NCBI GenBank assembly: GCA_963785725.1
Contig: CAWAWS010000003.1
Coordinates: forward strand, 1 to 64,000
DNA length: 64,000 bases
Origin: an uncultured delta proteobacterium
GTDB taxonomy: Bacteria > Myxococcota_A > Polyangia > Palsa-1104
Direction of reading: 5' to 3'
Shown here: positions 30,586 to 49,782 of the stretch, piece after piece
How positions within the stretch are numbered: the first letter of the stretch is position 1
Layout of the letters: each line of letters starts with the position of its first letter
Notes under the pieces: model-generated
What the model saw: the letters and a program-made list of their open reading frames with translations, nothing else
Database searches by the model: none
Told to the model about the DNA's origin: nothing
Position numbers and translations under genes: made by a program

Positions 30586-30614
30586 AGTAAACAGCCGTTT
30601 ACTCGTTCGACCGT

Positions 30615-30656
30615 AAAAAGGCGAACGCCCGCCGCAGCCGAAGCTGACAGCGGGCG
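30615..30656 (-). terminator. Terminator candidate between the convergent dusB and chitinase genes
   Basis: CGCCCGC...GCGGGCG stem; A-run at 30615-19 gives a U-tract on the minus strand. Confidence 0.4.
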
Positions 30657-30684
30657 CCGCGTGGTTGGCGATGTAACCGACTGT

Positions 30685-32197
30685 TTACTTGCTGACGGCC
30701 TGGAAGATCTTGCTGAACTGGAAGGTGCTGGTGTCGAGGTTGGAGCAGCGGTCGCCGTCGCCGTAGCCGCTCGACGGGCACTTCTCGTCGCGCTGGATGG
30801 CCCAGAAGGCGAGGAGGCCAATGCCCTTCGACTTGGCGTAATTGGCGAGCGTGCTGGCGTCGTCGAGGCTGAAGACTTCGCTGTCGTCGTTCTTGCCGAT
30901 CATGGGCGTGACGCCGACCATCTGGTACGCGGCGGCCGAGGAGAGGCCGCTGATGGCCGACTGCAGCTGCGACGCGGTGGCGTCGGCCGACGAGAGCGAG
31001 GCCGAGCCGACGTCGGTGCCGTCGCCGTAGTCCATCGTCATGACGTTGACGTGCGAGATGGTGACGCCGGCCTTGAGCGCCGAGGTGACGACGGCGAGGC
31101 CGAGGCTGTCGAGGCCGTCCGGGTTGACCGGCAAGGTGAAGGCGACCTTGATGCCGCGCGACGCCTGCACCGTCTTCAAGGCGCTGGCGCGCATGGCGTT
31201 GATGGTCGCGTTGCTGGTCGACGAGCCCTGCTCGATGTCGAAGTCGAGGTCGGTGATGCCGGTGGCGTCGACGAAGCCTTCGAGGGCCGACGCCAGCGCG
31301 CTCGCCGACGAGCAGGCGCTCTCCAAGTAGGTGCCGTCGGCGCCGCCGAAGCTGGCTTTGACGTGACCGCCGGCCGCTTGGAAGGCTTTGACGTCGGACA
31401 AGTTGTTCTGGATGTCGGTCGACGTCGTGCAGCCGCCGCCCGAGAGCACGAAAGCGATGGTGACGTCGGACGGGCCGCCGGCCGCTTTCATCGAGGTCAA
31501 GCTGGAGAAGGCGTAGTCGCTCGAGCCCCAACCCCACGTGTAGAAGTAGGGCGCGAACTCGGTGCCGCTCGTCGGCGACGTGCCGCCGCCGCCGGCCGTG
31601 CCGCCGCCGCCGGCCGTGCCGCCGCCGCCGGCGCTGCCACCGCCGCCGGCCGTGCCGCCGCCGGCCGCGCGCGCTGATCTTCCACTGCTGCGCCGCGGTG
31701 CCGTTGCAGTCGTAGAGCTGGACGGTGGCGCCGTCGGCGTTCGAGGCCGCGGCGACGTCGATGCAGCGGTTGCTGTTGGGATTGCGCAGCTGCGAATAGC
31801 CGGCGGCGCTCGACGCCTCGGCCACGAAGGTCTGCGCGACGGTGTTGTTGCAATCGTAGAGCTGCACTTTGGTGCCGTTGGCGGTGCCGGCGGCGGCGAG
31901 GTCGACGCACTTGCCGCTGTTGGTGTTGACGATCTTCACGCCACCCGTGACCGGCTCTAGCAGGAAGTCCTGCGCGCCGGTCCCGTTGCAGGTGTACTGC
32001 TGGATCTTGGTGCCGTCCGCGGTGCCGGCGGCGGCGACGTCGAGGCACTTGGCGCTGCCGTTGCGGACGATGGCGCCGCCCGACGTGACGGCGCTGGGAT
32101 CGCCCGTGCCTTCACCACCGACGGAACCGCCAACGCAACCACCGGCGCTGAGCGCGGCGGTGAGACAAAACATGATCGAGCGCGGCTTTAGGCCCAT
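30685..32197 (-). CDS. Lipoprotein with a ricin-B lectin domain and a GH18 chitinase domain (frameshift near 31680)
   Basis: AAAGGAG RBS; lipobox 'SAGGC'; ricin repeats; 'EFAPYFYTW', 'SFGGADG', catalytic 'TDLDFDIEQG' (DxDxE), 'VNVMTMDYG', 'TPMIGKND', 'FWAIQRD'. Confidence 0.85.
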
Positions 32198-32582
32198 GCG
32201 TGCTCCTTTGGTTGAGCGCGACCGCGTTCGTAGCCGGCCGACTTTCGAGTGCACCTCCCTTTTGCGAGAATGGGTCCAGCCGCCCCAGGCCATAACCGAC
32301 TGAAATTACGTAGGCAGTCGAGTGTATCAACGAAGGGACAGCACCTCGGCTGTCCACCTCCGGTTTCCGAATCGGCGCGTAGGACGGCCGCGCGAAGGCC
32401 GCTCACGACACAGTCGGCGCGGCTGCCGCGGCAGAAACGCGGCGTGATGCAGGTCGTAGGCGGCGAAAGGTGGGAGGCACACACGCGAGCCATGGATCGC
32501 GAGACGGCGGAGCACGTTCGCTGTCGGCGCTGCGGGGCTACGTCACGTGGCGCTGGCACAGCTGCTGCGCATCACGGTTAGC

Positions 32583-35402: not shown

Positions 35403-37050
35403 CTAGTGCATGCCGTTCGCGAGGAACGCCTTCAGGTAGCCGTGCACGCCGACGCCGCCGATGGAGTTGCACGTCGGCGAGGCCGAGCCCGCCGGGCAAT
35501 CGGTGTCGCGGTCGTACGACCAGTAGTGGATGCCGGCCATGCCCTTGGAGATGGCGAACTGCGAGATGGTGTCGACGTCAGCGACGGTGAAGTGCTCGTC
35601 CTGCGCGTCGTTGCCGCCGATCATCGGGGTCAGCTCGATGTTGCTGTAAGGCACGCCCCAGTGGTCGTTGAGGTTGTCGGCCGCCTGAATCGCCGACTGA
35701 CCCATCTGGCACAAGCCGCCCGAGACGACGCAGACGCCGGCCGACGGGCTGCCGTAGTCCATCGTCATCAGGTTGACCGTGACGTAGCTGGGCCAGCGTG
35801 CCGGCCGAGCCGTTGAAGCCGAGGCCGCTCTTGACCGCGTTGAGCGTGTTGTCGCCGTAGACGTTGAAGCTGTCGGGCGCGCTTCCGCCGAGCGACGTGG
35901 CCGAGCTGGCGCCGTTGTTGTTCGCCAGCGTCGCCAAGGTGAGGCTGAAGCGCAGGCCCGGGTACGCCGAGTGCGCCGTCTTGATGCGGGCGATCAGGTC
36001 ATTGATGACGTCCTGCGACTGGCCGGCCTCGATGTCGAAGTCGACGCCGATGAGGCCGGGCGACGACCAGCGGCTGATGAAGGTCGCGAAGCCGGCGTCG
36101 GTGCCGCACGTGAAGGAGCCGGCCGCGCCGCCCGTCGACAGGATGTACTTGACGCCCGAGCTCGACAGCGTCGGCACGTTGGCCGAGGCCATGGCCGCGC
36201 CCTGCACGCCGCCCCAGTTTTCACTGCCGCACTCGCCGGTGGCGAAGGCGAGCGTGATGGTCTTGCCGCCGGCCGAGGTCAGATCCTGCGTCAGCGGCGT
36301 GGGCGTGCCCGTGACGCTGGTGGTGATCATGTTGGTGTTCCAGTTCATGTTGATGCTGGTGTCCTTGTAGGCGCTGAACACGAGGCCCGCCGCCGCGCCG
36401 GTGCCGCCGCCGCCACCGGTCGTACCGCCGCCGCCCGCGCTACCGCCGCCGCCGGCCGAGCCGCTGCCGCCGGCCGAGCCGCTGCCGCCCGCCGAGCCGC
36501 CGCCGCTGCACGCGCCCTCGTCGGCCCAGACGCCGCTGCCGCCGGTGCTGGGGGCCTCGCCTTGCGTCCACCACTTCGCCTCCCACGTGTGGCCGTTGTA
36601 GCTCACGAGCATGCCGCCGGTGTAGATCGCGCTCGCGCTCCACGCGGCCGCCGTGCAGGTGCCGCCCGAGCCGCCGCTGCCAGCCGAGCCGCCGCCGCCA
36701 GCCGTGCCGCTTCCACCGGCCGTGCCGCTTCCACCGGCCGTGCCGCTTCCACCGGCCGTGCCGCCGCCGTTCGAGCACTGCACGGGCGTCCACAGCGCGG
36801 GCACGGCCGAGGGCGTCCAGTCCGACAGCGCCGTGTGGCCCTGCAAGCATTGGTAGTCGCTGCCCTGGTAGCTGACGATGGCGCCGGTCGCGTAGGACGT
36901 GCCGGGCGTCCAGGCCGGCACCGAAGCCGGGCACGTCACGCTGAGTGGGGCGGAGGATTCATGCTCGCCAGCCGCGCCACACCCGGCCACCGCGGCAAAC
37001 ATGATGAGAATGGAAGGAGCGCGAAGAGCTTTGACGAGTGTTGGTCGCAT
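35403..37050 (-). CDS. Lipoprotein GH18 chitinase with two CBM5/12 chitin-binding domains (frameshift near 35790)
   Basis: Lipobox 'AVAGC'; 'AWTPGTSYATGAIVSYQG..WTP..VPALW'; 'WSASAIYTGG..WEAKWWTQGEAP'; catalytic 'GVDFDIEAG'; 'MTMDYG', 'TPMIGGND', 'YWSYDRD'. Confidence 0.88.
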
Positions 37051-37365
37051 GACTCGGCCTCATCGCAAGACGAGGGCCACTCGGTTCTGCGTGCAAGCTG
37101 CTGAAAACGCGTAAACACGAATCGGCGGCGGTGAGGGGTGAAAGCACCTCGTGTCAACCTCGCATTCACAGCGACGGACGAGTGCGCACGGAAGGTCGCA
37201 GCGGCGCCCGCCAGCGACGGTAAACTGGAGTTGTCACTGTCTCTCGACGGAGACATGACGCAGCTCGGGGAGCGCGTTTCTGACGGCGCTCTCCGACGGG
37301 CAGCGACGATTCCGCGCGCGCTACGAGAGTCGTCCTGCGTCGCGGCGCGGCGAAGAAGCGGCGCC

Positions 37366-37582
37366 AATCGCCGACGACGAATCCGCCGCGGATCACCTGC
37401 GCGCAGCAGTCCTAAATCGCCGCGCGCAGCCCGCTGCAGATCGCCGCGCGTGCAGCCGGAAATCGCCCCGCGAGCGCGTCGGCAAAATCGCCGCGCGCGC
37501 AGCCGTGAATCGCCGCGCGCAGCCGTGAATCGCCGCGCGCAGCCGTGAACCGCCGCGCGCGCGCAAGCGCAATCGCGCGCGG
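37366..37582. repeat. Imperfect 20-25 bp tandem repeat with core AATCGCCGCGCGCAGCC
   Basis: Near-identical 20-mers at 37508, 37528 and 37548; degenerate copies at about 37415, 37439, 37461, 37486 and 37571. Confidence 0.75.
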
Positions 37583-37595
37583 CGACACCGCCACC

Positions 37596-37749
37596 TGCGG
37601 CCGATTGTCGCAGCGACGAGCGCGCCCGCGGGCGCTGTCGTTCTATGTCCGCTGCGACGCGCCTTCCGCGACAGACAACAGCACATAGAAAAGCGACATA
37701 AAAACTGCGACACGTTGCCACGCGTAATCGGGTGCGACAAATCGCCGCA
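37596..37749. promoter_or_regulatory. Cluster of TGCGRCA-N3-TGYCGCA-like sites upstream of the ketosynthase operon
   Basis: TGCGGCCGATTGTCGCA (37596), TGCGACACGTTGCCACG (37706), TGCGACAAATCGCCGCA (37733), in an A/T-richer spacer. Confidence 0.5.
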
Positions 37750-38042
37750 CAAAATGAAACATCAATGATTTCAACACACGAGAAACAATATACGTCGGCG
37801 CGCGCACGAACGAATCGACGAGGGAAAGCAAATCGCCACCGTCGAGCGCACTTGGCGGCCGGGCGTTTCCTTGACACTTACACACCATTGCTGCCATTTG
37901 AATTTGTACGCTCGTACGGTCGGCCAAAACTGCCCGCTGCGCGCGATTCTCGACGAGAGGGAAGAAGATCTGTTGATTCGAACGTAACCAAAACTGATTC
38001 GGTTTGCGTTCGATTTGAATTGGTTTCGCGGTCGCTGGGGAG

Positions 38043-39350
38043 ATGGAGCAGCACATGGAAGTCGTCGTCACCGGGATCGGTCCGCTCTTGCCGAACTGCG
38101 CCGACCGCGGCGCCTTGTGGACGCACCTGCGCGAAGGGCTGTCGCAGCTGACGTTCGAGCCGACGCCGACGAGCGACGGCGGACAATGGAGCGCCGGGCG
38201 CCTCGGCGACCTCGAGCCGGCGCGCTGGCTCGACCGTTTCCCACGCAAATTCTACGAGCGTTACAGCCGCGAGCAGCAGATCTACTTGGTGTCGCTGGTC
38301 ATCGCGCTCGCCGACGCGCGGCTCGACCTCGACGACGAGCCGCGCGAGCGCGTGGCGCTGTTCGACGGCACGTCCCGCGGCAACTTCGACTTTTGGTACG
38401 ACCGCGTGCGGCAAGAGCAGGCGCGCCCGCCGAGCGAGCTGTACACGCGGCGCGAGCTGATGCTGGGGACGCCCGGACAAGCGGCGAATCTGGCGGCGGC
38501 GCTGTTTCGCATTCGCGGGCCGGTCTACACCTTCAGTGGCACCTGCTGCTCGGGCGCGATGGCGCTCGGTCAGGCCTATCGCGAGCTCGCGAGCGGCGGC
38601 GACATCGAAGTCGCGCTCGCCAGCGGCCACGACTCGTGCCGCGCCGCCCCGCTCTATCATATGTATCGCGAGGCCGGGCTCGTCTCCGCCGAGCAGAAGG
38701 ACGCGCGCCGCGCCATTCGCCCCTTCGCCGCCGCCGATTCCCCCGTCGACGGCGGCGTGCACGGCAACGCCTTCGGCGAAGGCGCCATCACGATCGTGCT
38801 CGAGACGCGCGCCCACGCCGAACGCCGCGGCGCGAACATCTTGGCGACCATCGGCGGCTTTCAGTGCGGCAACAACGGCGCCCATCCCACCGACGTCGAC
38901 AAAGAGGGAACGCGGGCGACGGCGCTCATGAATCGCGTGCTGCAGCGGAGCGGGGTCGATCAGGAGCAGATCGGCTTCGTCGTCGGACACGGCAACGGGG
39001 TCGCGCAGAGCGACCGCTCCGAGGTCGCCTATTTGCAGCGCGTCTTCGCGGCGCGCACGCCGGAAGTGCCGCTCTTGTCGACGAAGCCGCTCTATGGCCA
39101 CCTGTTGGGCGCGTCGAGCACGCTCAACGTCGCGGCGGCGGTGTTGATGCTGCATCACCGCTGGGTCGTGCCGACGGCGAACGTCGACGGTGGCCCCTTC
39201 CTGACGGCCGACCGGCGCGCGAGCGGAGGCGTCGATCATCGCGCCGGCGGCGGACGGCCGTGCCATTCGCCGGCGGGCATGGCGGTCTCGTACGGCATCG
39301 GCGGGCACAACACGGTGACGCTGGTCGAGCGCGTCGAGGCGGCGGCCTAA
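38043..39350 (+). CDS. FabF/FabB-type beta-ketoacyl synthase (start 38043 or 38055)
   Basis: 'VVVTGIG'; Cys in 'SGTCCSG'; His in 'VVGHGNG' and 'STKPLYGHLLGA'; 'FGEGA'; 'SYGIGGHN'. Confidence 0.85.
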   Translation: MEQHMEVVVTGIGPLLPNCADRGALWTHLREGLSQLTFEPTPTSDGGQWSAGRLGDLEPARWLDRFPRKFYERYSREQQIYLVSLVIALADARLDLDDEPRERVALFDGTSRGNFDFWYDRVRQEQARPPSELYTRRELMLGTPGQAANLAAALFRIRGPVYTFSGTCCSGAMALGQAYRELASGGDIEVALASGHDSCRAAPLYHMYREAGLVSAEQKDARRAIRPFAAADSPVDGGVHGNAFGEGAITIVLETRAHAERRGANILATIGGFQCGNNGAHPTDVDKEGTRATALMNRVLQRSGVDQEQIGFVVGHGNGVAQSDRSEVAYLQRVFAARTPEVPLLSTKPLYGHLLGASSTLNVAAAVLMLHHRWVVPTANVDGGPFLTADRRASGGVDHRAGGGRPCHSPAGMAVSYGIGGHNTVTLVERVEAAA

Positions 39351-41177
39351 ATGCGCGCCGGCAAATTGATGCGCCTTCACGACGCCGTGCGCGCCCACGT
39401 CACGCCGGGCATGCATCTGCACTTCGCGTCGACGCCGAGCCGCTCGAACGCGGCCGTGCGTGAGATCGCGCGCTCGTTCGTCGGCACCCGGCCGCGCTTT
39501 AGGCTGAGCAGCACCGGCTTTCACTCGCTCTTGCACCTCTTGCCGATGCTGCGGCTGGGCGAGACCTTGGCGGGCTGCTTCTTCGGCGATCATTATCCGG
39601 CGCCGCGACCGAACCCGCTCTACACGCGCGTCGCCGCCGCCGGCGTCACGCTCGAGCAGTGGTCGCTGGGCTCGTTCGTGGCCAGCTTGCGCGCCGGCGC
39701 CCAGGGCGACCGCTGGGCCGTCAATCGCACGCTCGCGGGCACGACGCTGGCCGCCGATCTCGCCGCGGCCGGACGTTATCGCGAGCTGCCCGATCCCGCC
39801 GACGACACGCGCAGCCTCGGCCTGTGCGCGGCCATGCGGTCCGACGTCACGTTCGTCCACGCCGCGGTCGGCGACGACGACGGCAACGTCCTCATGTCGG
39901 CGCCGTTCTCCGAAGGCTTGTGGAGCGCGCTCGGGGCCAAACGCGGCGTCATCGTCACCGTCGAGCGACTGGCGCCGTGCGCGTGGAGCCGCGAATATCC
40001 CGACTTGATCGCGCTGCCGGCCGATCGCGTGCTCGCGGTGTGCGTCGAGCCGTTCGGCGCCCATCCGCAGTCGTTTCACTGCGAGCCCGACCTCGGCGTC
40101 GCCTCTTATCGGGACGATTTCGCGCACTACGACGCCTGGCGCGCGCTGACGACGGACGAGGCGGCGGCCGGTCGCGTCATCGCCCGCATCATCGACGGCG
40201 ACGACGGCGGCGAGGCCTACCGCGCCATGGTCGGCGGCGCGCGACTGGCGGAGCTGACCGTGCCGCGGGCGCGGCGGGCCTATCGCCGCACGTGGACGCC
40301 CGCTCCGACAGCTCCGGCGCGCGCTCAGACAGTGCTCGCCCCACGGGCGGCGCAAGACAGCTCGCGCGCGCCGGAGCTGTCTCCGCTCTGCCTGCAGACC
40401 AGAACGAGCCGGAAGGAACGCGCCGTGAGCAAGGGACGCGCGGTCGATCACATGATCGTCGGTGGGGCGCGGCAGTTGGCGGCGCGGGCCAAGGCGATGG
40501 GCGCGCGCGTGCTCATCGCCGGCATCGGGCACGCGTTTTTTGCGTCGCGGATGGCGCAGCTGCAGCTGGCGGACGAAGGATTCGAGCTGCAGGTCATGGT
40601 CGAGATCGGGCTCTATGGCGTCGCCTGCGGCGTCGAAGGGCATGGCTATCCGCTCGCGTATGACAATGTTCGGCATGCGCGGCGGCTGAGCTCGATCGAC
40701 GACGTGCTCGGCGTGCTCAGCTGCGGCGCCGACAACCGCTGCTTGGGCGCGCTCGGCGCCGCGCAGGTCGACGCCGAGGGCAACTTGAACAGCACGCGCT
40801 TGGCCGACGGGCGCGTGCTCGTGGGATCGGGCGGCGCGTGCGACATCGCGGCGGCGGCGACCGAAGTCGTCGTCCTGACGCGCCTCGAGCCCGGGCGGCT
40901 GGTCGCGAGGCTCGACCATCGCACCAGCCCCGGTCGTGCCGTGAAATCGGTCGTCACCGATCGCGGCACGCTCGTGCGCGGCGACGGCGGCTGGCAGCTG
41001 GCGTCGCTGTCGGCGGACGCCGCGAACGACGACGATCGCGCAGCCGTCGCGCGCGACTGCGCCTGGCCGTTGACGTTCGCGGCCGAGCTGACGCACGCCG
41101 CGCCCATCACGGCGCGCGAGGCCGAGCTTTTGACGATGCTCGATCCCGACGGTCTCTTTCGCGGACGTGCCGCATGA
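39351..41177 (+). CDS. Fused alpha+beta family-I CoA-transferase (glutaconate CoA-transferase GctAB-like)
   Basis: Alpha half 'HAAVGDDDGNV', 'VIVTVERL', 'VEPFGAHP'; beta half 'IAGIG', 'MVEIGLYG' (Glu at the catalytic position), 'LGAAQVDAEGNLNST', 'VGSGGACDI', 'DHRTSPG', 'VVTDRG'. Confidence 0.82.
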   Translation: MRAGKLMRLHDAVRAHVTPGMHLHFASTPSRSNAAVREIARSFVGTRPRFRLSSTGFHSLLHLLPMLRLGETLAGCFFGDHYPAPRPNPLYTRVAAAGVTLEQWSLGSFVASLRAGAQGDRWAVNRTLAGTTLAADLAAAGRYRELPDPADDTRSLGLCAAMRSDVTFVHAAVGDDDGNVLMSAPFSEGLWSALGAKRGVIVTVERLAPCAWSREYPDLIALPADRVLAVCVEPFGAHPQSFHCEPDLGVASYRDDFAHYDAWRALTTDEAAAGRVIARIIDGDDGGEAYRAMVGGARLAELTVPRARRAYRRTWTPAPTAPARAQTVLAPRAAQDSSRAPELSPLCLQTRTSRKERAVSKGRAVDHMIVGGARQLAARAKAMGARVLIAGIGHAFFASRMAQLQLADEGFELQVMVEIGLYGVACGVEGHGYPLAYDNVRHARRLSSIDDVLGVLSCGADNRCLGALGAAQVDAEGNLNSTRLADGRVLVGSGGACDIAAAATEVVVLTRLEPGRLVARLDHRTSPGRAVKSVVTDRGTLVRGDGGWQLASLSADAANDDDRAAVARDCAWPLTFAAELTHAAPITAREAELLTMLDPDGLFRGRAA

Positions 41178-42145
41178 GCGAGCACGACGTGCGCATCACC
41201 GGCTTCGCCAGCTACCTGCCGAAGCTCATGCATACGAACGCGACCTTGCCGCCGCTCGACGAGCCGATCGGCGACGACGAGCTGCAGCGCATCGGCGTCT
41301 TCCGGCGCGGCTGGGCCGGCGAAGACGAGGGCGTGGCCGACATGGCGCTCGCCGCCGCCCAGCGCGCGCTCGCGCGTGCCGGCGTGCGCGCCGACGAGCT
41401 CGACGTGGTCATCGTCGCCAACTGGACGCAGCGTCGCTTCTTGCCCGAGTTCGCGCCCAAGCTGAAGCTGCTGCTCGGCGCCGCGCGCGCGTTCGCCCAC
41501 GACCTCGGCTGCGCCTGCGCCGGCTTTCTGTACGGCGTCGCCACCGCCAGCGAATTCCTACGCAATCCGCGCTATCGGCGCGCGCTCGTCGTCGCCTCGG
41601 AGACGACGTCGCGACGGGCGCGACCGGGCAGCCGCGGCACGCTCATCCTCGGCGATGGCGCAGGCGCCTTCGTGCTCGAGCGCGCCGACGATTCCGACGC
41701 GCGCGGCGGCAAGCTCATCGACTACGAGCTCGCCAGCGACGGCGCGCATCACGGCATCATGGAGATCAACGCCGCCGGCTGGGTGCAGACGCATCTGCCG
41801 CAGCGCGAGCTGTGCGCGCTGGCGGCGCGCTCGATCGCCGACGTCAGCCGCCGGCTGCTCGACCGCAACGGCCTCACCCTCGCCGACGTCGCCTGGCTGG
41901 TGCCGCATTCGGGCACCGCCGGCGTGCAAGCGGCCATCGCGCGCACGCTCGAGCTGCCCGACACGCGCATCCTCACCAACTACGCCGACGTCGGCAACGT
42001 GTCGTCGGCGTCGATTCCCGTCGCGCTCGATCATTTCGTGGCCGCGGGTCGCGTGCAGCCGGGCGATCTCGTGCTGTCGGCGGCGGTCGGTGGCGGCTGG
42101 TACGTCGCCGCCGCGCTCTACACCGTCGGCGAGGCGCACGCGTGA
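41174..42145 (+). CDS. KAS-III/FabH-like condensing enzyme with an intact Cys-His-Asn triad
   Basis: 'DLGCACAGFLYG', 'LGDGAGA', 'LVPHSG', 'VGNVSSASIP', 'AVGGG'; ATGA overlap with the CoA-transferase stop. Confidence 0.88.
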   Translation: MSEHDVRITGFASYLPKLMHTNATLPPLDEPIGDDELQRIGVFRRGWAGEDEGVADMALAAAQRALARAGVRADELDVVIVANWTQRRFLPEFAPKLKLLLGAARAFAHDLGCACAGFLYGVATASEFLRNPRYRRALVVASETTSRRARPGSRGTLILGDGAGAFVLERADDSDARGGKLIDYELASDGAHHGIMEINAAGWVQTHLPQRELCALAARSIADVSRRLLDRNGLTLADVAWLVPHSGTAGVQAAIARTLELPDTRILTNYADVGNVSSASIPVALDHFVAAGRVQPGDLVLSAAVGGGWYVAAALYTVGEAHA

Positions 42146-43182
42146 CCGGCGCGCATCGCCGCGGCGAGTTCGTCAGCGAGCTGGTCGCCACCGGCTACGC
42201 CTACCCGCGCACGATCGTCGACAACGAGGAGTTCTTCGCGCGCTGCCGCTTCCCCATCGCCGACGGCGCCGGCGGTCGCGCCACGCTCGTGGCCGACACG
42301 CGCATGAAGACGCGACGCTGGTGCGGCCCGGGCGAAAACACCTGGACGATGGCGCAGGAAGCGGTGGCGATGGCGATGACCGAGAGCCCGCTGCCGGCGA
42401 GCGAGATCGATCTGGTCATCGTCTCCTCGTGCTCGACGATCCCGATGGTCAACGTGCCCAACGCCGACAATCCGGTCATGGCCGACCTGGCGCCGCTGGT
42501 GCTGGCGCAGCTCGGCCGCGACGACGGCGTCGCCATCGACCTGAAGGCCGGCTATTGCGCCGGCTTCTTGCGCAGCCTGGAGGTGATGGACGCCATGCTG
42601 CAAACGGGCGCCTATCGCGCCGGGCTCGTCGTTGCCAGCGACGAAGGCGGCCGCTTCGCCACCGCCGAGAGCAACCGCTCGGCGTTCTGCTTCATCGTCG
42701 GTGACGCCGCCGGCGCCGTCGTCATGAAGCCGCGGCCGCGCAGCACCGTCGGCAGCGGCGGCCTCGGCCTCGTCGACTGCCTGACGCGCACGGTGCCGAG
42801 CTGCGCCGACTTGACCGGCTGGGGCGCCGACGGCCGCTCGCTCTACGTCAAAGGCGCGCGCGCCGGCGCCACCGGCCTCGCCCTCCTGCTCGACGCCGGC
42901 CGCGAATTGCTCGCGCGCAACCACATGAGCGGCGCCGACGTCGATTGGCTCTTACCGGCGCAGACCCACGTCGCCACCGTCGAGGCGCTGTGCGACGGCC
43001 TCGACGTGCCGCGCGCCAAGCTGTGCTGGTCGGGCGACGTCACCGGCTACTCGGCCAGCGCCAGCATCGCCGCCAGCCTCGGCGAACGCCGCCGATCGGG
43101 CGCGCTGCACAAAGGCGACCTCGTCCTCTCGCTCGCGGTCGGCGCCGGGATGAACGTCGCCGCCGCTTTGTACTTTTGTTGA
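42142..43182 (+). CDS. Second KAS-III/FabH-like protein; Cys kept, His and Asn positions substituted
   Basis: 'DLKAGYCAGF', 'VGDAAGA', 'LLPAQTH' (PHQ expected), 'TGYSASASI' (GN expected), 'AVGAG'; GTGA overlap. Confidence 0.82.
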   Translation: MTGAHRRGEFVSELVATGYAYPRTIVDNEEFFARCRFPIADGAGGRATLVADTRMKTRRWCGPGENTWTMAQEAVAMAMTESPLPASEIDLVIVSSCSTIPMVNVPNADNPVMADLAPLVLAQLGRDDGVAIDLKAGYCAGFLRSLEVMDAMLQTGAYRAGLVVASDEGGRFATAESNRSAFCFIVGDAAGAVVMKPRPRSTVGSGGLGLVDCLTRTVPSCADLTGWGADGRSLYVKGARAGATGLALLLDAGRELLARNHMSGADVDWLLPAQTHVATVEALCDGLDVPRAKLCWSGDVTGYSASASIAASLGERRRSGALHKGDLVLSLAVGAGMNVAAALYFC

Positions 43183-43192
43183 CGGCTTGCTC

Positions 43193-43936
43193 ATGGAGGC
43201 GCGCGTGGGACTGCTGGCGGAAAAAGTAGTCGTGGTGACGGGAGCGACGTCGGGCATCGGCGCCGAGCTGTCGCGTCGGCTCTATCACGAAGGCGCGACC
43301 GTCATCGGCGTCGGCCGCCGCGCCGACACGCTCGCCGCCGAGGAGACGCGCGGTGAAGGCCGCTTCATCGGCATCGCGACCAACCTCGCCGATCCCGAAG
43401 CGCGCCCGCTGGCGATCGAGTCGATCGCGCAATATGCGCCGCGCATCGACCTCTTGGTCAACAACGCGGGCGAGACCAGCTACGAGACGCCGCTCGAGCT
43501 CGGTTACGAGCGCTGGCGGCAGCTGTGGGAAGTGAACCTGCACGCGGCCATCGAGCTGTCGTTGGCGCTGGCGCCGCGGATTCAGCCGGGCGGCAGCCTC
43601 ATCAATGTCTCGTCGATCACGGCGCGCATGCCGCCCAACGTGCGCTTCGCGGCCTACGCGGCCACCAAAGGCGCGCTCGATCGCGTGACCGAAGCGCTGC
43701 GGCTCGAGCTCGATCCGCGTCAGGTGCGCGTCTCGTCGATCGCGCCCGGGCTCGTCGACACGCCGATCTACGACAAGCTGGCCGGCTTCGCCGAGACGCG
43801 CGCGAAGATCATGCGGCAAGTGCCGCGCTGGCTCTCGCCGGGCGACGTCGCCGACGCGATCGTGTGGATGGCGTCGCGGCCGGCGCACGTCGTCATCAGC
43901 GAGCTGGTGATCTTGCCGTCGGGCCAAGGACGATGA
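43193..43936 (+). CDS. Short-chain dehydrogenase/reductase
   Basis: 'TGATSGIG', 'LVNNAG', 'NVSS', 'YAATK', 'IAPGLVDT'. Confidence 0.9.
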   Translation: MEARVGLLAEKVVVVTGATSGIGAELSRRLYHEGATVIGVGRRADTLAAEETRGEGRFIGIATNLADPEARPLAIESIAQYAPRIDLLVNNAGETSYETPLELGYERWRQLWEVNLHAAIELSLALAPRIQPGGSLINVSSITARMPPNVRFAAYAATKGALDRVTEALRLELDPRQVRVSSIAPGLVDTPIYDKLAGFAETRAKIMRQVPRWLSPGDVADAIVWMASRPAHVVISELVILPSGQGR

Positions 43937-44415
43937 CGGACCCGCTCATGGACGCCGAGCTGCAGCAAAAGTCGGAGCGCTATCTCGACGAGCTGTTCGG
44001 TCCCGGCGCCGGCGCGCGTCACAGCCGCTTCTTGCAGCAGCTCGAGAACGAGGGATTGCGTACAGAGATCCATCGTTATCACGCGCTGCAGGCCGATCAG
44101 TCGCAGCTCTCGGTGGGCGAGCATTACTTGATCGCGCTCTGTGTCTTGTGCGCGCTCAGGTCGTACGGCACGGCGCAGATGTTCGCCAAGACGCTGCGTC
44201 ATCTCGGCGTCTCGCGCGGCAAGATCCTGGCGGCGTTGGCGCGGCTGTCGATGTGGACGGGCGGCATTCCGGCGGTCGAGGCCACGCTGGCGATGACGCG
44301 GGCGCTCGACGAGTACGATCGCCTGGGCGCGGCGTCGCTGGCCGCGTGGTTTCCCGACGAAAACGGCGTCGGCCAAGCGCCGCGGCCGCGTCAGCCGGAG
44401 CCGCGTCATGGCTGA
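43933..44415 (+). CDS. Carboxymuconolactone-decarboxylase/AhpD-like helical protein
   Basis: 'LSVGEHYLIALCVLCAL...LGVSRGKILAALARLSMWTGGIPAV' fits the CMD/AhpD helix pattern; ATGA overlap with the SDR stop. Confidence 0.55.
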   Translation: MTDPLMDAELQQKSERYLDELFGPGAGARHSRFLQQLENEGLRTEIHRYHALQADQSQLSVGEHYLIALCVLCALRSYGTAQMFAKTLRHLGVSRGKILAALARLSMWTGGIPAVEATLAMTRALDEYDRLGAASLAAWFPDENGVGQAPRPRQPEPRHG

Positions 44416-45223
44416 TCGGCCGGTCGATCGTCCGCTCGATCGTCCGCCGCTGCTCGCCGGCGCGCGCGGCGTCGTCATCGGCGTCTCCAGCGAGCGCAGC
44501 ATCGGCTACGCCTGCGCGGCCACGGCGCGCGCGCTCGGCGCCGAGGTCGCCATCACCTATCGCCCGGCGCGCTGGCGCGACGGCGCGCGGCTGGCCGAGC
44601 AGCTCGGCGCCAGCTTGCACGCGCCGCTCGAAGCCGGCGACGACGCGACGATCGACGAAGCCTTCGCCGCGCTCGAGCAGGCGTTCGGTCGGCTCGACTT
44701 CGTCGTCCACACGCTCATGCATGTGCCGTCGGAGCTGCTCGAGCGGCCGCTGACGGCGCTGTCGCGCGACGATTTTGCCCGCGTGCTCGACGTCGGCGTG
44801 CATTCGCTGTTGCGGCTGTGCCGGCACGCGCGGCCGCTGCTCATGCGCTCCCAAGCGCCGCGCGTCGTCACCATCAGCTCGCCCTGCAGCCAGCGCGCGA
44901 CGCCGCACTATCACGTCGCCGGCATCGCCAAAGCGGCGCTCGAGTCGGCGCTCATCTACCTCGCGCAGGAGCTCGGTCCGGCCGGCATCTTGTGCAACGC
45001 CGTGAGCCCGGCGCTGCTCGCCACCGACGGCGCGCTGGCCGTCGTCGGCGCCGACGCTGCGGCCGCGACCCGCGCGCACCTCGGCAAGCGCGCGGCGACG
45101 CGCCGGCCCACCGAGCTCGACGACGTCGCCGATTGCGTCGCCTGGCTGTGCAGCCCGATGGCGCGACAAGTGACCGGCGAAGTCATCACCATCGATGGCG
45201 GCTATTCACGCAGCTATTTCTGA
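44408..45223 (+). CDS. FabI-like enoyl-thioester reductase
   Basis: 'GVSSERSIGYACA', 'FGRLDFVVH', 'PHYHVAGIAKAALES' (Y-x6-K), 'ELGPAGILCNAVSP', 'VTGEVITIDGGY'. Confidence 0.85.
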   Translation: MADRPVDRPLDRPPLLAGARGVVIGVSSERSIGYACAATARALGAEVAITYRPARWRDGARLAEQLGASLHAPLEAGDDATIDEAFAALEQAFGRLDFVVHTLMHVPSELLERPLTALSRDDFARVLDVGVHSLLRLCRHARPLLMRSQAPRVVTISSPCSQRATPHYHVAGIAKAALESALIYLAQELGPAGILCNAVSPALLATDGALAVVGADAAAATRAHLGKRAATRRPTELDDVADCVAWLCSPMARQVTGEVITIDGGYSRSYF

Positions 45224-45247
45224 CGCGGCAGCCTTGGGGGAGAGCGA

Positions 45248-46726
45248 ATGAGCCTTGCGGCAACGAGCAACAGCAATAGCGAGAATACGTCCACCTATCG
45301 ACTGCCGAAGAAAGCGGGCGGGCTGCAATTGGGCGCGCGCCTCGGCGAATTCGCGGACTTCTTGCGCGGCAACACCAACCTCGATCCCGAGCTGCGCCGC
45401 GCCCAAGCCGACGTCATGATCGCCCGCGCGCAAGTGCTCATCTGGATCTCGGTGTTCGTCATGCCGAGCTGCATTCTGTCGTATGTCTTCTTCAATCGCG
45501 CCGATCGCCTGATGCTGGCGGCGACGATCGTCGGCGCCGCCATCGTCGCCGTGCTGCTCCTCGCCGTCGTCATTCGCGGCGGCCTTTTTCGCGGCCGCGA
45601 GCAGCTGGCGATGCTCATCCTCGTCGGCGGCGTGTTCGGGCCGACGGGCGCGCTCATCACCGTCGTCTCGCCCGGCAACAGCGGCAACTTCTTCTTCTCG
45701 TTCTTTCTCATTTACTTCGCCTTCACCGCGCTCTTTCCCGCCGACGTCAAATGGGTCTTGGCGACTTCGATGGCGCTCATTGCCAGCTATTTGGGTGCCA
45801 ATGCTTTGCAACAAGGGACTTTGCATTTCTCGGGGGAGCTGACGAACAACCTCATTTACTTGGCGGAGCTGACGTTCATCGGCGTCGTGCTCAATCGCGT
45901 CTTGTGTCGCCTGTTCTTCGACGAGCGGCGCGCGCAGCAGGAGTTACGCGGCGCCCGCGACGCGCTGTTCTCGGAGATGGAAGTCGCGCAAGAGATTCAG
46001 ACGCTCTTGTTGCCGAAGAATCCGCAAGTGGAAGGCAATGTCGTCAGCGGCTTGATGGTGCCGGCGACCGAGGTCGGCGGCGATTATTACGACGTCATCG
46101 TCTCCAATAACGGCCGCACCTTCATCGCCATTGGCGACGTTTCGGGCCACGGCGTCACTTCGGGATTAACGATGATGATGGCGCGCGCGAGCTTATTGGG
46201 CGCGCTCGAAGCCAGCCCGACTGCGTCGCTCGAATCGCTGTATCAAATATTGAATCGCTGCCTGCGCCAGAACTTGGAGCGCATGGAGCTGAGCCTGTAT
46301 ATGACCTTCGCGCTGTTCGAGCACCTCGGCGAAGGGCGCTTTCGCGGCGTCGGCCGCCACTTGCCGGCGCTGATCTATCGGCACGCGCTCGACAAAGTGG
46401 AAGAGATCGATCTCGACGGCATTTGGCTCGGCATTTTACCCGACGTCACCGCCGATCAATTGCCGGCGGCGACCATTCAATTGGCGCCCGGCGATCTGCT
46501 GTTCCTTTATACCGACGGCATCGTCGAGCACGAAGGGCCGGGCGGCATGTTCGGCTTCGAGCGGCTGAAGACGCTGATTCAACTGGCCGCGCGCGACGGC
46601 GCCGCCGAGCTCATCGCCAAAGTCATGCGCGAGCTGAACGCTTACTCGGGCAAGCAAGAAGACGACGTCACCATGCTCGCCGTCAATCACACCGGCCAGC
46701 GCCATTCGCCACGCGCGAGCGCTTAG
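45248..46726 (+). CDS. Membrane-embedded PP2C/SpoIIE-family phosphatase (about 6 TM helices; SiaA/RsbU-like)
   Basis: Hydrophobic N-terminal half; 'EMEVAQEIQTLLLP', 'EVGGDYYD', 'IGDVSGHG', 'LYTDGIVE', 'QEDDVT'. Confidence 0.9.
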   Translation: MSLAATSNSNSENTSTYRLPKKAGGLQLGARLGEFADFLRGNTNLDPELRRAQADVMIARAQVLIWISVFVMPSCILSYVFFNRADRLMLAATIVGAAIVAVLLLAVVIRGGLFRGREQLAMLILVGGVFGPTGALITVVSPGNSGNFFFSFFLIYFAFTALFPADVKWVLATSMALIASYLGANALQQGTLHFSGELTNNLIYLAELTFIGVVLNRVLCRLFFDERRAQQELRGARDALFSEMEVAQEIQTLLLPKNPQVEGNVVSGLMVPATEVGGDYYDVIVSNNGRTFIAIGDVSGHGVTSGLTMMMARASLLGALEASPTASLESLYQILNRCLRQNLERMELSLYMTFALFEHLGEGRFRGVGRHLPALIYRHALDKVEEIDLDGIWLGILPDVTADQLPAATIQLAPGDLLFLYTDGIVEHEGPGGMFGFERLKTLIQLAARDGAAELIAKVMRELNAYSGKQEDDVTMLAVNHTGQRHSPRASA

Positions 46727-46759
46727 CGGCCGCTTGGCCGACTCTAAAGGAGAACTGCA

Positions 46760-47122
46760 ATGGACGATTTGAACGCGGGCGATTTGAACATTCAGGTCAT
46801 CAGCAAAGACAACTTATCGGTACAGTTGGTCTTGCGCGGTCGCAGTAACGACCGGCAGCCGACGCGGCTCTTGTCGCCCTATTTCGCGACGGCGGTGGCG
46901 ACGGCCGCGGCCGCGAACGTGCCGCTGGAGTTGCACTTCGAGCAGCTGGAGCACTTCAATTCGTCGACGATTACGGTGCTCATTCAATTGATCCAAGAAG
47001 CGCGCAATAAGGGGATCAAGCTGAGCTTCGTCTATCGACAAGACTTGAAGTGGCAAAAGCTCAGCTTCGATGCGCTCAAAGTATTTACCAAGGATGGTCA
47101 GCTCGAATTGCGGGCCGTTTAA
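46760..47122 (+). CDS. STAS/SiaC-like protein with a putative phosphoacceptor Ser (FNSST)
   Basis: AAGGAG RBS; 'LRGRS...P..LLSPYF...LHFEQLEHFNSSTITVLI...KWQKLSF'. Confidence 0.6.
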   Translation: MDDLNAGDLNIQVISKDNLSVQLVLRGRSNDRQPTRLLSPYFATAVATAAAANVPLELHFEQLEHFNSSTITVLIQLIQEARNKGIKLSFVYRQDLKWQKLSFDALKVFTKDGQLELRAV

Positions 47123-47135
47123 AGGAGATCGCGTC

Positions 47136-47624
47136 ATGTCGAGCTTCAATTTTTCCATCGATCTTCCGGTGCGCAGCGAGTGGAAGAACGTCGACCTCTT
47201 GCGCACGTCGGTACAAAACTGCTTCGTCGCCATCTTCAGCGACCTCGATGGGTGCCATGCCATTTCGATGGTCACCGGCGAGCTCATCGAGAACGCCATC
47301 AAATACGGCCATTGGGACGGCGAGACGCAGTCGTTTCGGCTGCGCGTCTCGGGCGGCGCCGGTCGGGCGACGATCACCGTCGAGAATCCGATCAAAGCCG
47401 GCGACGAAGGCGTGGCCGACCTGTTGCGCACGATCGCCTGGCTGCAGGATTTCCCGTCGGCGGCCGAGGCTTATCGCGCGCGGCTGATGGAGATAGCGGC
47501 GGCGCCGGCCGATTCCGGCGCCAGCCGGCTGGGGCTCGTGCGCGTCGCTTACGAAGGCGGCTGCAAGCTGTACGCGGAGCCGCTCGGCAACACGCTGGCG
47601 GTGTCCGCCGCGATGGAGTTCTGA
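47136..47624 (+). CDS. GHKL-type anti-sigma-like Ser/Thr kinase (RsbW/SiaB-like)
   Basis: AAGGAG RBS; N-box 'MVTGELIENAIKYG'; 'SRLGLVRVAYEG'. Confidence 0.7.
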   Translation: MSSFNFSIDLPVRSEWKNVDLLRTSVQNCFVAIFSDLDGCHAISMVTGELIENAIKYGHWDGETQSFRLRVSGGAGRATITVENPIKAGDEGVADLLRTIAWLQDFPSAAEAYRARLMEIAAAPADSGASRLGLVRVAYEGGCKLYAEPLGNTLAVSAAMEF

Positions 47625-47627
47625 CGC

Positions 47628-48152
47628 ATGAGCCGCAATCAACTGCGCCTCGAGCTGCAGCTCGACGGACAATGGGAGCGCATCGACAGCGTGCGCGAGG
47701 CGGTCGGCCATTCGGTGGCGGCCGCGTTCGGCGACGGCGACCTGCGCGACTCGCTGGCCATGGTCACGGCCGAGCTGCTCGAGAACGCGCTCAAATACGG
47801 CGAGGCCGACGCTGGCGTCGAGCTCACGATCGTGAGCGAGCCGGAGGCGCTCGTCGTCACCGTCGGCAACGCCGTCAAAGAGGACTCGCCGCACATCGTC
47901 GCGCTGCAAAAGCGGCTCGCGTGGCTGCGCGAGTTCGACGATCCGTTCACCGCCTACACGACGGCGCTGGCCGAAGTCTTCGATCGCAAAGGGCCGGACA
48001 GCGTCGACAGCGGGCTCGGCTTCGCGCGCATCGGCTACGAAGGGCGCTGCGTGATCGCGTGCGACACGTCGCGGCCCGGCTTCGTGTCGGTGACGGCGCG
48101 ACGGCAAAAGAGCGAGACCGTCGAGCTGCACGCCGACGCGAGGCTGTCATGA
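47628..48152 (+). CDS. Second RsbW/SiaB-like GHKL kinase paralog
   Basis: 'MVTAELLENALKYG'; 'SGLGFARIGYEG'. Confidence 0.7.
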   Translation: MSRNQLRLELQLDGQWERIDSVREAVGHSVAAAFGDGDLRDSLAMVTAELLENALKYGEADAGVELTIVSEPEALVVTVGNAVKEDSPHIVALQKRLAWLREFDDPFTAYTTALAEVFDRKGPDSVDSGLGFARIGYEGRCVIACDTSRPGFVSVTARRQKSETVELHADARLS

Positions 48153-48553
48153 CGACGAGCCCGACGCAGCCGCAAGCGGTCAAGCCCGAGGTGCGCGTCT
48201 CGATTGGGCCGACCCAAGAGAACGTCATCACGTTTACGGGTTTGATGCGCGAGGTCGATCCGGGCAGCTGGTTCCTGCCGCTCATCGACGAGGTGCACGG
48301 CAAGCTGCTCGCCGGCCGCATCAACAACGTCGTCGTCGACATTCGCAAGCTGACGTATTCGAACGCCGCCGGCTGGAAGTGCTTCGTCTATTGGATGAAG
48401 AAGATGCAAGAGGACGAGCGGTCGACGTATCGCATGTGCATCTTGTGCGAGGAGACGCTCGGCTGGCAGCAGGTGGGCATGTCGGCGCTGCGCGTGTTCG
48501 GCGGCGAGCGGCTGCAGCTCAAGGTCTACAACGGCGATAAGCGGGTGCGCTGA
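48149..48553 (+). CDS. Second STAS/SiaC-like protein, NAA at the position of NSS
   Basis: ATGA overlap; 'ITFTG...DPGSWFLP...VVDIRKLTYSNAAGWKCFVYW...GWQQVGM' aligns by eye with 46760..47122. Confidence 0.55.
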   Translation: MTTSPTQPQAVKPEVRVSIGPTQENVITFTGLMREVDPGSWFLPLIDEVHGKLLAGRINNVVVDIRKLTYSNAAGWKCFVYWMKKMQEDERSTYRMCILCEETLGWQQVGMSALRVFGGERLQLKVYNGDKRVR

Positions 48554-48589: not shown

Positions 48590-48850
48590 TTAGCGGACGC
48601 GGGTCTGCAGGCTGTCGACGGCGTGGATCGGCGGCGCGGCGCCGGCCATGAGCGGCGCGATGGCCGCGTACACCAGGCGCTGGCTCTTGAGCATGTTGAG
48701 CCCTTCGAACGCCGCGGCCGTGACGACGATCGTGTAATGCCCATTCCCGCCGTCGACGTCACACTTGGCGCCGGCGATCGCGCCTTCGACGGCCGTGCGA
48801 ATCGCCGCCAAGATGTCGCCCTGGAAGTCGGTGTCGTGCTTGCCCGACAT
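48590..48850 (-). CDS. bolA: BolA/IbaG-family protein
   Basis: 'GNGHYTIVVTAAAFEGLNMLKSQRLVYAAI...IHAV'; directly downstream of the Grx4 gene. Confidence 0.85.
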   Translation of the reverse strand: MSGKHDTDFQGDILAAIRTAVEGAIAGAKCDVDGGNGHYTIVVTAAAFEGLNMLKSQRLVYAAIAPLMAGAAPPIHAVDSLQTRVR

Positions 48851-49782
48851 TAGTAGCGCGGCACTTTCGCGTCGACCGTCTGCGACCAGGCGTCGATCCC
48901 GCCTTCGAGGTTGTAGACGTCCTTGAACCCTTCGGCGATGAGCTGCTCGGCCGCGCGCTGGCTACGGCCGCCGTGATGGCAATGCAGCACCACCGTCGCC
49001 GTGCGATCGAGCGCCGCCAGCCGCGCCTGACCGGCGGCGTCGAGCAGCTGCGCGCCGGCGATCGACGCCGTGGCGTGCTCTTCGGGCGTGCGCACGTCGA
49101 ACAGCGCCAGCGTCGCGCCGCTGTCCAGCATGCTCTTGAGCGCCTTGGCCGTCAGCTGCTTGACCCGCGCCGGCTCCTGCGGATTGGCGATCTTGAAGCC
49201 CGCGCCCCGCGCATCCTCCACGAAGTCGATGCTGACGCCGTCGAGCCGCGGCGCGCTCTGCGCATCGACGTGAATCGCCAGCCCCTCCGACGTCACCACG
49301 AAGTCGTTGGGCTGCTTGTCGCCGAAGTAGAGCTCGTACTGGAACTGCGCGTTCGCTTCCATGCGCAGGACCATCCCCGGCGCATCGGCCGCGGCCGACG
49401 AGAACGCCTTGGCCGCCGTCGCCGACAGCGTGATGCTCGGCGCCTTGGCGGGCGCTGCCGGAGCCGGCGCCGCCGCGCCGAACAGCTTCTGCAGCTCGCC
49501 CGACGCGTGCATCGCCTTGACGATGTCGCAGCCGCCGACGAACTCGCCGTCGACGTAGAGCTGCGGGATGGTCGGCCACTGCGAATACTCTTTGATGCCG
49601 TCGCGAATCGCCGGATCGGCGAGCACGTTCACCGTCTCGTACTTCGGAACCAGCGGGTTGAGCAGCGACACGACGGTCGCGGAAAAGCCGCACTGCGGGA
49701 AGCTCTTGCTCCCCTTCATGAAGAGCACGACCTTGTTGTTCTTGATGGTGCGCTCGATCTGCCCGCGAACATTCTCGTCCAT
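48850..49782 (-). CDS. grxD: Monothiol glutaredoxin Grx4 fused to a Cys-less HesB/IscA-like domain and a rhodanese domain
   Basis: 'LFMKG..FPQCGFS', 'WPTIPQLYVDGEFVGGCDI'; 'ITLSATAA...IHVD..SAPRLDGVSIDFVED..GFKIANP'; 'DVRTPEEH', 'HCHHGGRS', 'NLEGGIDAW'. Confidence 0.88.
   Translation of the reverse strand: MDENVRGQIERTIKNNKVVLFMKGSKSFPQCGFSATVVSLLNPLVPKYETVNVLADPAIRDGIKEYSQWPTIPQLYVDGEFVGGCDIVKAMHASGELQKLFGAAAPAPAAPAKAPSITLSATAAKAFSSAAADAPGMVLRMEANAQFQYELYFGDKQPNDFVVTSEGLAIHVDAQSAPRLDGVSIDFVEDARGAGFKIANPQEPARVKQLTAKALKSMLDSGATLALFDVRTPEEHATASIAGAQLLDAAGQARLAALDRTATVVLHCHHGGRSQRAAEQLIAEGFKDVYNLEGGIDAWSQTVDAKVPRY

Follow-up and report, generated by a model that had tools for sequence, protein, structure and literature searches.

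What might seven clustered enzymes of lipid-building type make, with no carrier protein of their own, and is the product sensed by the membrane protein encoded directly behind them? The question is raised by an operon at positions 38043-48553 of a 64,000-nucleotide stretch (the window, which denotes the whole stretch analysed) of contig CAWAWS010000003.1, from the uncultured delta proteobacterium assembly GCA_963785725.1 (Myxococcota_A; Polyangia; Palsa-1104). Comparison with related genomes revealed that the seven enzyme genes are a conserved, shuffled block without an acyl carrier protein (ACP), present in scattered Myxococcota, and that the part travelling with this block is the six-helix membrane domain of the neighbouring phosphatase, not the STAS/GHKL switch that follows it. 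We consider it somewhat probable that the block makes a small diffusible acyl compound for which the adjacent six-helix domain is the cognate receptor, an arrangement resembling CqsA/CqsS with unrelated chemistry. The twelve open reading frames (ORFs) of the operon, none of which has an internal stop, and the membrane domain are as follows.

38043-39350, + strand: FabF-type elongating ketosynthase (KS), 435 aa, with the Pfam KS N- and C-terminal domains
39351-41177, + strand: fused alpha and beta chains of a family I CoA-transferase of the glutaconate CoA-transferase type, 608 aa, with a PDB profile match to GctA/GctB (1poi)
41174-42145, + strand: ketoacyl-ACP synthase III (KAS III) a, FabH-like with a complete triad, 323 aa, FabH being the closest structures
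42142-43182, + strand: KAS III-b, with the catalytic Cys only, 346 aa, ACP_syn_III
43187-43936, + strand: classical short-chain dehydrogenase/reductase (SDR), probable ketoreductase, about 245 aa, adh_short
43933-44415, + strand: CMD-fold protein, 160 aa, weak Pfam CMD match
44408-45223, + strand: FabI-type enoyl reductase, 271 aa, adh_short_C2, with FabI as the best NCBIfam models
45248-46726, + strand: membrane sensor fused to a PP2C (SpoIIE) phosphatase, 492 aa, with SpoIIE at residues 288-480
45389-45967, + strand: six-helix membrane domain of the phosphatase, residues ~48-240, proposed as receptor from its predicted structure and co-occurrence
46760-47122, + strand: STAS-like protein 1 (slr1659-like), a probable phospho-acceptor, with weak STAS and SiaC matches
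47136-47624, + strand: GHKL-like protein 1 (slr1658-like), putative Ser/Thr kinase or anti-sigma-type partner, with HATPase_c_2 and slr1658 matches below cut-off
47628-48152, + strand: GHKL-like protein 2, a diverged paralogue with 33% identity to protein 1 by sequence comparison
48149-48553, + strand: STAS-like protein 2, without the conserved Ser/Thr run, slr1659 superfamily E 2.5e-5

Intergenic distances in gene order are 0, -4, -4, 4, -4, -8, 24, 33, 13, 3 and -4 nt; the start codon of KAS III-b is GTG 42142 and that of the last STAS-like ORF ATG 48149. An earlier note on this DNA had described twelve tightly packed, same-strand genes free of indels, and the gaps of -8 to 33 nt and uninterrupted frames bear this out. 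Its family assignments also agree with our profile scans: KS, CoA_trans, the two ACP_syn_III, adh_short, adh_short_C2 and SpoIIE passed the Pfam cut-off, while CMD (E 8e-4), STAS (E 3e-4) and HATPase_c_2 (E 1e-3 and 4e-3) fell below it. FabI was the best NCBIfam model for the adh_short_C2 protein, below cut-off, and the four small signalling proteins scored 25-35 bits against the NCBIfam slr1658/slr1659 superfamilies, where the cut-off is 100. The note had further stated that the cluster lacks an ACP, malonyl transacylase, acyl-CoA ligase, dehydratase and exporter; family scans indeed found none among the operon’s 12 proteins. PP-binding matches number seven in the genome and none in the 64-kb window, one of the seven lying in the housekeeping fab locus, which encodes an ACP and malonyl transacylase and is situated separately on contig C5.

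The distribution of the block was followed with a CoA-transferase profile built from 92 homologues, which matched 284 metagenome stretches; among the best 80 of these 284, which were retained, all seven block genes occur in 18, in several gene orders, and at least one block gene besides the CoA-transferase occurs in 67, most of the others being cut by contig ends. Close homologues of the CoA-transferase are labelled Polyangia and Kofleriaceae, which marks the window’s genome as related to the myxobacteria, and the carriers of the block are uncultured myxobacteria from soil and water; no cultured carrier appeared among the 10 CoA-transferase clusters looked at, whose members bear the names of metagenome-assembled genomes or none. 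The KAS III-b gene relocates, lying beside the KS, on the opposite strand or on another contig, and was present in all five genomes checked for it, one of which, G431, gave no match to the CMD profile. Searches elsewhere returned no full-length CoA-transferase orthologue or block in 40 relatives of the window’s genome, no CMD gene in 25 genomes of another order, no additional block carrier in a class-wide search (3/182) and no plasmid match to KAS III-b at E 1e-30. A carrier-protein profile made from the genome’s seven domains was run on 97 stretches, a set without a positive control, and gave no match better than E 0.43. No description of this enzyme combination was found in the literature, where mostly open-access papers were searched. 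Two other types of locus were seen. At L083:8628-21410 there is a larger, distant relative with a KS, CoA-transferase, two KAS III, several SDRs, two more KS and an amidohydrolase, the set lying behind a LuxR-type ATPase regulator. In the loci L147, L148, L149, L150, L027 and L064 the CoA-transferase is kept by itself, or else together with KAS III-b, and neither the other block genes nor the sensor are there.

The linkage between block and membrane domain was tested in three whole-genome samples, each in both directions; the samples overlap and are not additive. The membrane region (residues ~48-240) forms a narrow family of 88 matches and 62 representatives. In the phylum sample the CoA-transferase was matched in 13/401 genomes, a tally that is a floor since this search was stricter at first look, and block genes lie beside it only in G000 (the window’s genome), G291 and G431; the membrane domain was found in 3/401 genomes, exactly these three, whose own sequences were contained in the domain profile. 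Among 138 Kofleriaceae genomes the domain occurs in six and the CoA-transferase in 10, and all six domain genomes carry the block: four have block and sensor on one contig, in G497 the KS lies beyond the contig end, and in G454 the parts are on two contigs. The remaining four have a lone CoA-transferase, in one case with KAS III-b, and gave no KS, CMD or sensor matches. These tallies include the unpublished genome G477, negative for sensor and CoA-transferase and with one weak GHKL1-type match, on which no conclusion hinges. Within the order of G431, KAS III-a was found in 4/154 genomes, and in these four and no others the domain was found, each time on the contig of KAS III-a; two of the four had been absent from both query alignments. 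Taking the close subfamily of the domain, all 11 searched genomes that carry it have the block (11/11), and a block gene lies within 4 kb of the domain in 21 of 22 stretches, the exception being a contig end of a block-bearing genome. A rough check by equal contig size matched 13 of 28 membrane-domain records on contigs of at least 14 kb to the top 120 CoA-transferase records. The rare domain is therefore tied to the block in whole genomes, and its position relative to the block varies, being downstream, upstream and divergent, or inverted. The trees of the sensor and of KAS III-a agree at the few nodes that are supported and are otherwise mostly unresolved, which is no proof of co-evolution.

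What changes from locus to locus is the output. The SpoIIE phosphatase is carried by 82 of the 88 matches of the membrane region, and in 34 domain homologues scanned the output was SpoIIE or a histidine kinase, with two giving no match and one having an added GGDEF. Next to the block, the domain sits on PP2C in the window, L017-L019, L021, L029 and L032, and on a histidine kinase in seven loci, six of them Pfam-confirmed (L042, L071, L076, L080, L121 and L165) and the seventh, L114, a near-copy of L042. The kinase versions begin with the six-helix domain, followed by HisKA, HATPase and REC; a receiver and second kinase domain are usually present. In L029 the CoA-transferase immediately precedes the six-helix PP2C. 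The PP2C/STAS/GHKL module is thus a swappable output, and GHKL1-type genes, found in 43 of the 138 Kofleriaceae genomes and mostly without the block, mean that the STAS/GHKL switch is not block-specific. The earlier note had set as a test whether the biosynthetic and signalling halves travel together; this holds for the membrane domain, in all three genome samples, and is not supported for the interchangeable PP2C, STAS and GHKL parts. The two STAS-like proteins of the operon are unequal: Ser68 and Ser69 of protein 1 are conserved in 12/12 orthologous rows, the window’s included, whereas protein 2 lacks this Ser/Thr run and has no close counterpart in related loci. Both GHKL proteins, which the note had called kinases, keep the N box, and the canonical G1 aspartate was not seen in either by the usual definitions of these boxes, so the label ‘kinase’ is unproven.

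The six-helix domain itself has no Pfam match at E up to 1. MASE8 (PF20968) gave no hmmscan match for three domain members; language-model features placed clusters that contain MASE8 at the top of the ranking (0.98; the family being on 11-40% of members), which is a lead. The predicted structure (mean predicted local distance difference test score, pLDDT, 90.7) has a short N-terminal helix followed by six long helices, the last entering the cytoplasm. Compared with 48,161 chains, the model matched ImcA (Z 14.7), AC5 (Z 14.7, root-mean-square deviation 4.2, 213 residues aligned), AC9 (Z 13.9, deviation 3.4, 194 aligned) and Rv1625c (Z 8.6, deviation 4.5, 154 aligned), with three unrelated or designed helical proteins at Z 10-11 between AC9 and Rv1625c. 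No Foldseek match reached E 0.001, the best TM-scores being to the same cyclase and ImcA proteins. As modelled, the domain would share with adenylyl cyclases a six-helix fold followed by a long cytoplasmic helix, a predicted likeness that extends over 150-210 residues (Z 8.6-14.7) to AC5, AC9, Rv1625c and ImcA. It differs from these in sequence (9-15% identity) and in having no cyclase domain, none being found on the 34 homologues scanned. We know of no case in which the six-helix domain of AC5, AC9, Rv1625c or ImcA lies beside the synthase of its ligand. C18 unsaturated fatty acids are reported to inhibit Rv1625c in a manner that depends on its membrane domain (PMC12505454), a lipid-receptor role has been reported for the six-helix domains of mammalian adenylyl cyclases (PMC11606603), and CqsS is described as sharing the six-helix design and regulating Rv1625c when made into a chimera (PMC4821796).

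Turning to the enzymes, active-site residues were read from alignments of near-full-length ORFs chosen from the fetched loci, a subset of loci. They indicate that the enzymes keep intact active sites. The KS, with ~30% identity to FabF, has Cys168, His316, Lys348 and His353 invariant in 28/28 orthologues, and with its Cys-His-His set complete it is predicted to be an active elongating KS of the type II fatty-acid synthase (FAS) or polyketide synthase (PKS) kind. KAS III-a, whose closest structures are FabH, retains Cys115, His245 and Asn275 in 25/25. In FabH the Cys takes the acyl group, and His and Asn are needed for decarboxylation. KAS III-b keeps Cys139 in 24/24 and has both the FabH His and Asn positions substituted, so by FabH chemistry it can be acylated and should not decarboxylate; it is probably an acyl-transfer, joining or release enzyme. 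The SDR has Asn117, Ser143, Tyr157 and Lys161 invariant in 23/23, and the FabI-type protein Tyr168 and Lys175 in 19/19. The CMD-fold protein was modelled at pLDDT 90, and its top Foldseek rows were CMD-family structures (probability 1.0, E >0.001). His30, His50, Glu63 and Arg104 are invariant among 23 CMD-like proteins, which have no invariant Cys, and the ‘AhpD-like’ option of the earlier note consequently finds no support. The best PDB profile matches of the CoA-transferase are GctA and GctB (1poi), and its Glu418, invariant in 92/92, falls opposite the catalytic-strand Glu of GctB in the alignment (residue 52 in the deposited chain, taken as Glu54), which points to a family I enzyme of the GctAB type. 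This catalytic Glu is reported to be essential in transferases and missing in the hydrolase IpdAB (PMC5380842).

From these parts a pathway can be proposed. The CoA-transferase would load a short acid onto CoA, and its glutaconate-type ancestry suggests that this starter is perhaps a dicarboxylate. KAS III-a could perform the first decarboxylative condensation, the FabF-type KS would extend the chain, most likely on the cell’s own malonyl-ACP, and the SDR and FabI-type enzyme would reduce ketone and double bond. KAS III-b, having lost the decarboxylation residues, might then transfer, join or release the chain, with the CMD-fold protein contributing a cyclisation, dehydration or decarboxylation step. 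Both the product and its sensing are what we infer here: a small, membrane-permeant amphiphile that would partition into the membrane and bind the six-helix domain. In the window’s genome the domain would control the PP2C, acting on STAS-like protein 1 with the GHKL-like proteins opposing; in other genomes the same domain would control a histidine kinase.

How does this compare with known signalling systems? As in CqsA/CqsS (Vibrio CAI-1) and LqsA/LqsS (Legionella), a candidate synthase gene set lies beside a putative six-helix membrane receptor for which a lipid-like ligand is proposed. The CqsS architecture, with six helices on a hybrid kinase, was seen in six kinase loci; in the window the domain has a PP2C output instead. 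A single pyridoxal phosphate (PLP)-dependent enzyme serves as synthase in each of CqsA/CqsS and LqsA/LqsS; here there are seven enzymes of CoA/thiolase-fold and reductase type, and no aminotransferase-class match, as expected of a PLP-dependent autoinducer synthase, was found among the 12 operon proteins. Free-standing FabH-like enzymes, one of a pair being partly degenerate, form the KAS III-based synthases PqsBCD, PpyS, DarB and lipstatin LstAB. The operon has a candidate pair of this kind, with one chain partly degenerate, and differs in its added FabF-type KS, CoA-transferase, CMD-fold protein and two reductases, in having no acyl-CoA ligase, and in a receptor that would be a membrane protein rather than the LysR or LuxR of the KAS III signal systems. 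Compared with PqsBC, the KAS III-b gene is often apart from that of KAS III-a, and its product keeps the Cys, not the His/Asn. Models for DarB/StlD dialkylresorcinol synthases scored 30-39 bits against cut-offs of 450-550 (DarB 30 against 550). In the output half, SiaABCD of Pseudomonas aeruginosa is described as comprising a membrane PP2C, a GHKL-like protein and a STAS-like target (10.1101/674879). The operon resembles SiaABCD and slr1658/slr1659 in having a membrane PP2C, GHKL-like proteins and a putative STAS-like target, with scores far under the family cut-offs, and departs from SiaABCD in its sensor domain and in the duplication of both small proteins. The SiaA model NF038263 gave 56 bits against a cut-off of 700, in the PP2C part only, and no GGDEF, as in a SiaD-type diguanylate cyclase, was found among the 12 proteins. 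The CoA-transferase shares the fold family of GctAB and IpdAB; here it is a fused single chain among condensing enzymes, not catabolic genes. A type II FAS or PKS would bring a dedicated ACP, chain-length factor, malonyl transacylase and dehydratase, all absent from the cluster, which has one KS only. The locus is therefore arranged like CqsA/CqsS with a different kind of synthase, has an output like that of SiaABC without belonging to it, and by its lack of a carrier is not a type II FAS/PKS. That it represents an undescribed class of Myxococcota autoinducer, in which a carrier-less KS/CoA-transferase/twin KAS III/CMD pathway is coupled to a cyclase-type six-helix receptor with phosphatase or kinase outputs, is a proposal we make tentatively, judging it a little short of even.

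Several observations weigh against a synthase-receptor pair. The Z values of 14-15 are barely above the ~13 that helical bundles reach by common arrangement, and ImcA is described as controlled by a partner protein, with no lipid known in the account given there (PMC10904736); a cyclase-like fold shared with lipid-responsive Rv1625c and partner-controlled ImcA is hence compatible with a lipid ligand, not proof of one. Distances in sensor and block correlate moderately for KAS III-a (rho 0.43) and the CoA-transferase (rho 0.46), a point in favour of the pair; the correlation is weak for the KS (rho 0.12), and kinship confounds all three. Genes for a dehydratase, carrier or exporter are missing from the operon. 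In 2/40 relatives there are distant homologues of the domain (E 3e-22 and 2e-8) and no block; one locus, L182:6890-10533 (G010), groups a distant six-helix PP2C with genes for a DUF6272 GHKL-like protein and a methyltransferase, and is possibly another synthase-sensor pairing. A well-supported branch of the block, comprising 11 loci, has no six-helix sensor in view and instead has a gene for a secreted beta-barrel protein after FabI.

L068:10356-10823, also in L035, L057-L059, L063, L067, L072, L073, L081 and L088: secreted protein of ~150 aa directly after FabI

In quick trees, one for each of KAS III-a, KS and KAS III-b, the sensor-bearing loci part from this branch (support 95-100). Eight metagenome loci show 3 kb or more of sequence to either side; four of them have the sensor (two being near-identical) and four the barrel. 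The earlier note’s view of the membrane phosphatase as receptor thus gains from the modelled fold match to cyclase domains and loses from a branch with no sensor adjacent. The barrel protein has weak matches to DUF3224 (4/10 members), allene oxide cyclase (1/10) and pyocyanin demethylase (E 0.22), and may be a barrel of the allene oxide cyclase/dirigent type acting as tailoring enzyme or ligand carrier. When the long-branched L083 is taken as outgroup, the barrel branch falls within the sensor-bearing lineages; this suggests that the sensor was lost or replaced, though the root is unsure. At one locus (L034:9017-10072) a membrane-anchored STAS (RsbR-like) protein follows FabI. The membrane parts of the chemoreceptors and membrane STAS protein in sensor-less loci have no detectable relation to the six-helix domain (probability <1%).

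The first rival is pathway-specific regulation. Here the product of the block would be a defensive or structural metabolite, and the sensor would turn on the operon in response to an outside cue or the starter acid, without sensing the product. We regard this as unlikely, though the most serious of the alternatives, as it accounts for the same block-sensor linkage, which would be equally expected if the sensor merely regulated the operon. It would also accommodate the persistence of the block in the sensor-less barrel branch, where a chemosensory cluster lies near 6/11 loci and no such neighbour is seen in the other five, as well as the membrane STAS protein after FabI. Set against it, the outputs (partner switch, hybrid kinases, chemosensory cluster) are of a behavioural type, no DNA-binding regulator was found among the 12 operon proteins, and a rare sensor subfamily kept through many rearrangements would fit a cognate ligand better. 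A second possibility, which we consider improbable, is that the sensor detects a foreign acyl compound, which the enzymes of the block activate and then remodel or destroy. Members of the CoA-transferase and CMD families are well known in the breakdown of lactones and dicarboxylates, and the nearest outgroup CoA-transferases have acyl-CoA dehydrogenases, enoyl-CoA hydratases and a ligase around them; IpdAB, moreover, is reported to be a ring hydrolase on the same fold (PMC5380842). Such conversion is difficult to reconcile with two condensing enzymes that have complete decarboxylative triads, with the retention of Glu418, for which IpdAB is reported to have no equivalent (PMC5380842), and with the absence from the block of the dehydrogenase, hydratase and thiolase that partner IpdAB or beta-ketoadipate catabolism.

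In a third alternative, accessory fatty-acid synthesis would yield an unusual membrane lipid, and the state of the membrane would be what the six-helix domain senses. This reading could draw on FabF-, FabH-, FabG- and FabI-like parts that are all there, and six-helix cyclase domains are reported to respond to fatty acids (PMC12505454). A housekeeping fab locus with ACP and malonyl transacylase already exists on C5, however, the block was not found in the 40 relatives, and the operon has no acyltransferase for putting a chain into lipids, so that we think this very improbable. Least credible of all is the chance adjacency of two unrelated modules. It could call on the fall in G+C content across the junction (0.68-0.73 in the enzyme block, 0.62 in the PP2C gene and 0.55 in that of STAS-like protein 1) and on the wide spread of STAS/GHKL genes, but reciprocal co-occurrence in the three genome samples, in varied arrangements, largely refutes it for the six-helix domain; it may hold for GHKL-like protein 2 and STAS-like protein 2.

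The surroundings of the operon were also inspected.

37051-38042, no strand: non-coding region upstream of the operon, ~55% GC near the start, with an imperfect 20-nt tandem repeat at ~37400-37560

No sigma-70-like promoter was detected for the operon, and no upstream motif common to the window and related loci was found. Terminator-like sites occur at chance level (9 against 7.3 +/- 3.2) with none at the 45.2 kb junction, which does not of itself demonstrate co-transcription. The flanking MFS, BolA, glutaredoxin and carbohydrate-binding genes are absent next to the block in other loci, and the MFS gene was for this reason rejected as the exporter. The BolA gene lies beside a fused glutaredoxin/Fe-S biosynthesis/rhodanese gene at 48590-49782, convergent with the operon. 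Two carbohydrate-binding/glycoside-hydrolase genes, at 30599-32293 and 35403-37050 of the window, appear split across frames, and the housekeeping fab genes (G000:C5 ~235700-240000) also look frame-split, which suggests assembly indels; the operon itself is unaffected.

If the block and the domain are indeed synthase and receptor, the natural ligand of an orphan six-helix domain would be readable from the neighbouring genes. Six-helix membrane domains of the kind found in cyclases and CqsS are for the most part described as orphan receptors (PMC4821796), and a ligand candidate would be obtainable here by expressing ~7.2 kb of DNA and could be tested on the adjacent receptor. A synthase with its cognate membrane receptor is known as a principle; what would be new is the chemistry of the block, as implied by an enzyme set with a carrier-less FabF-type KS, a Cys-only KAS III and a CMD-fold protein with conserved His/His/Glu. 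Acyl-homoserine-lactone synthases are reported to be very rare in myxobacteria (10.1101/849075), and yet these bacteria are strongly social, so a lineage-specific lipid signal would fill this gap.

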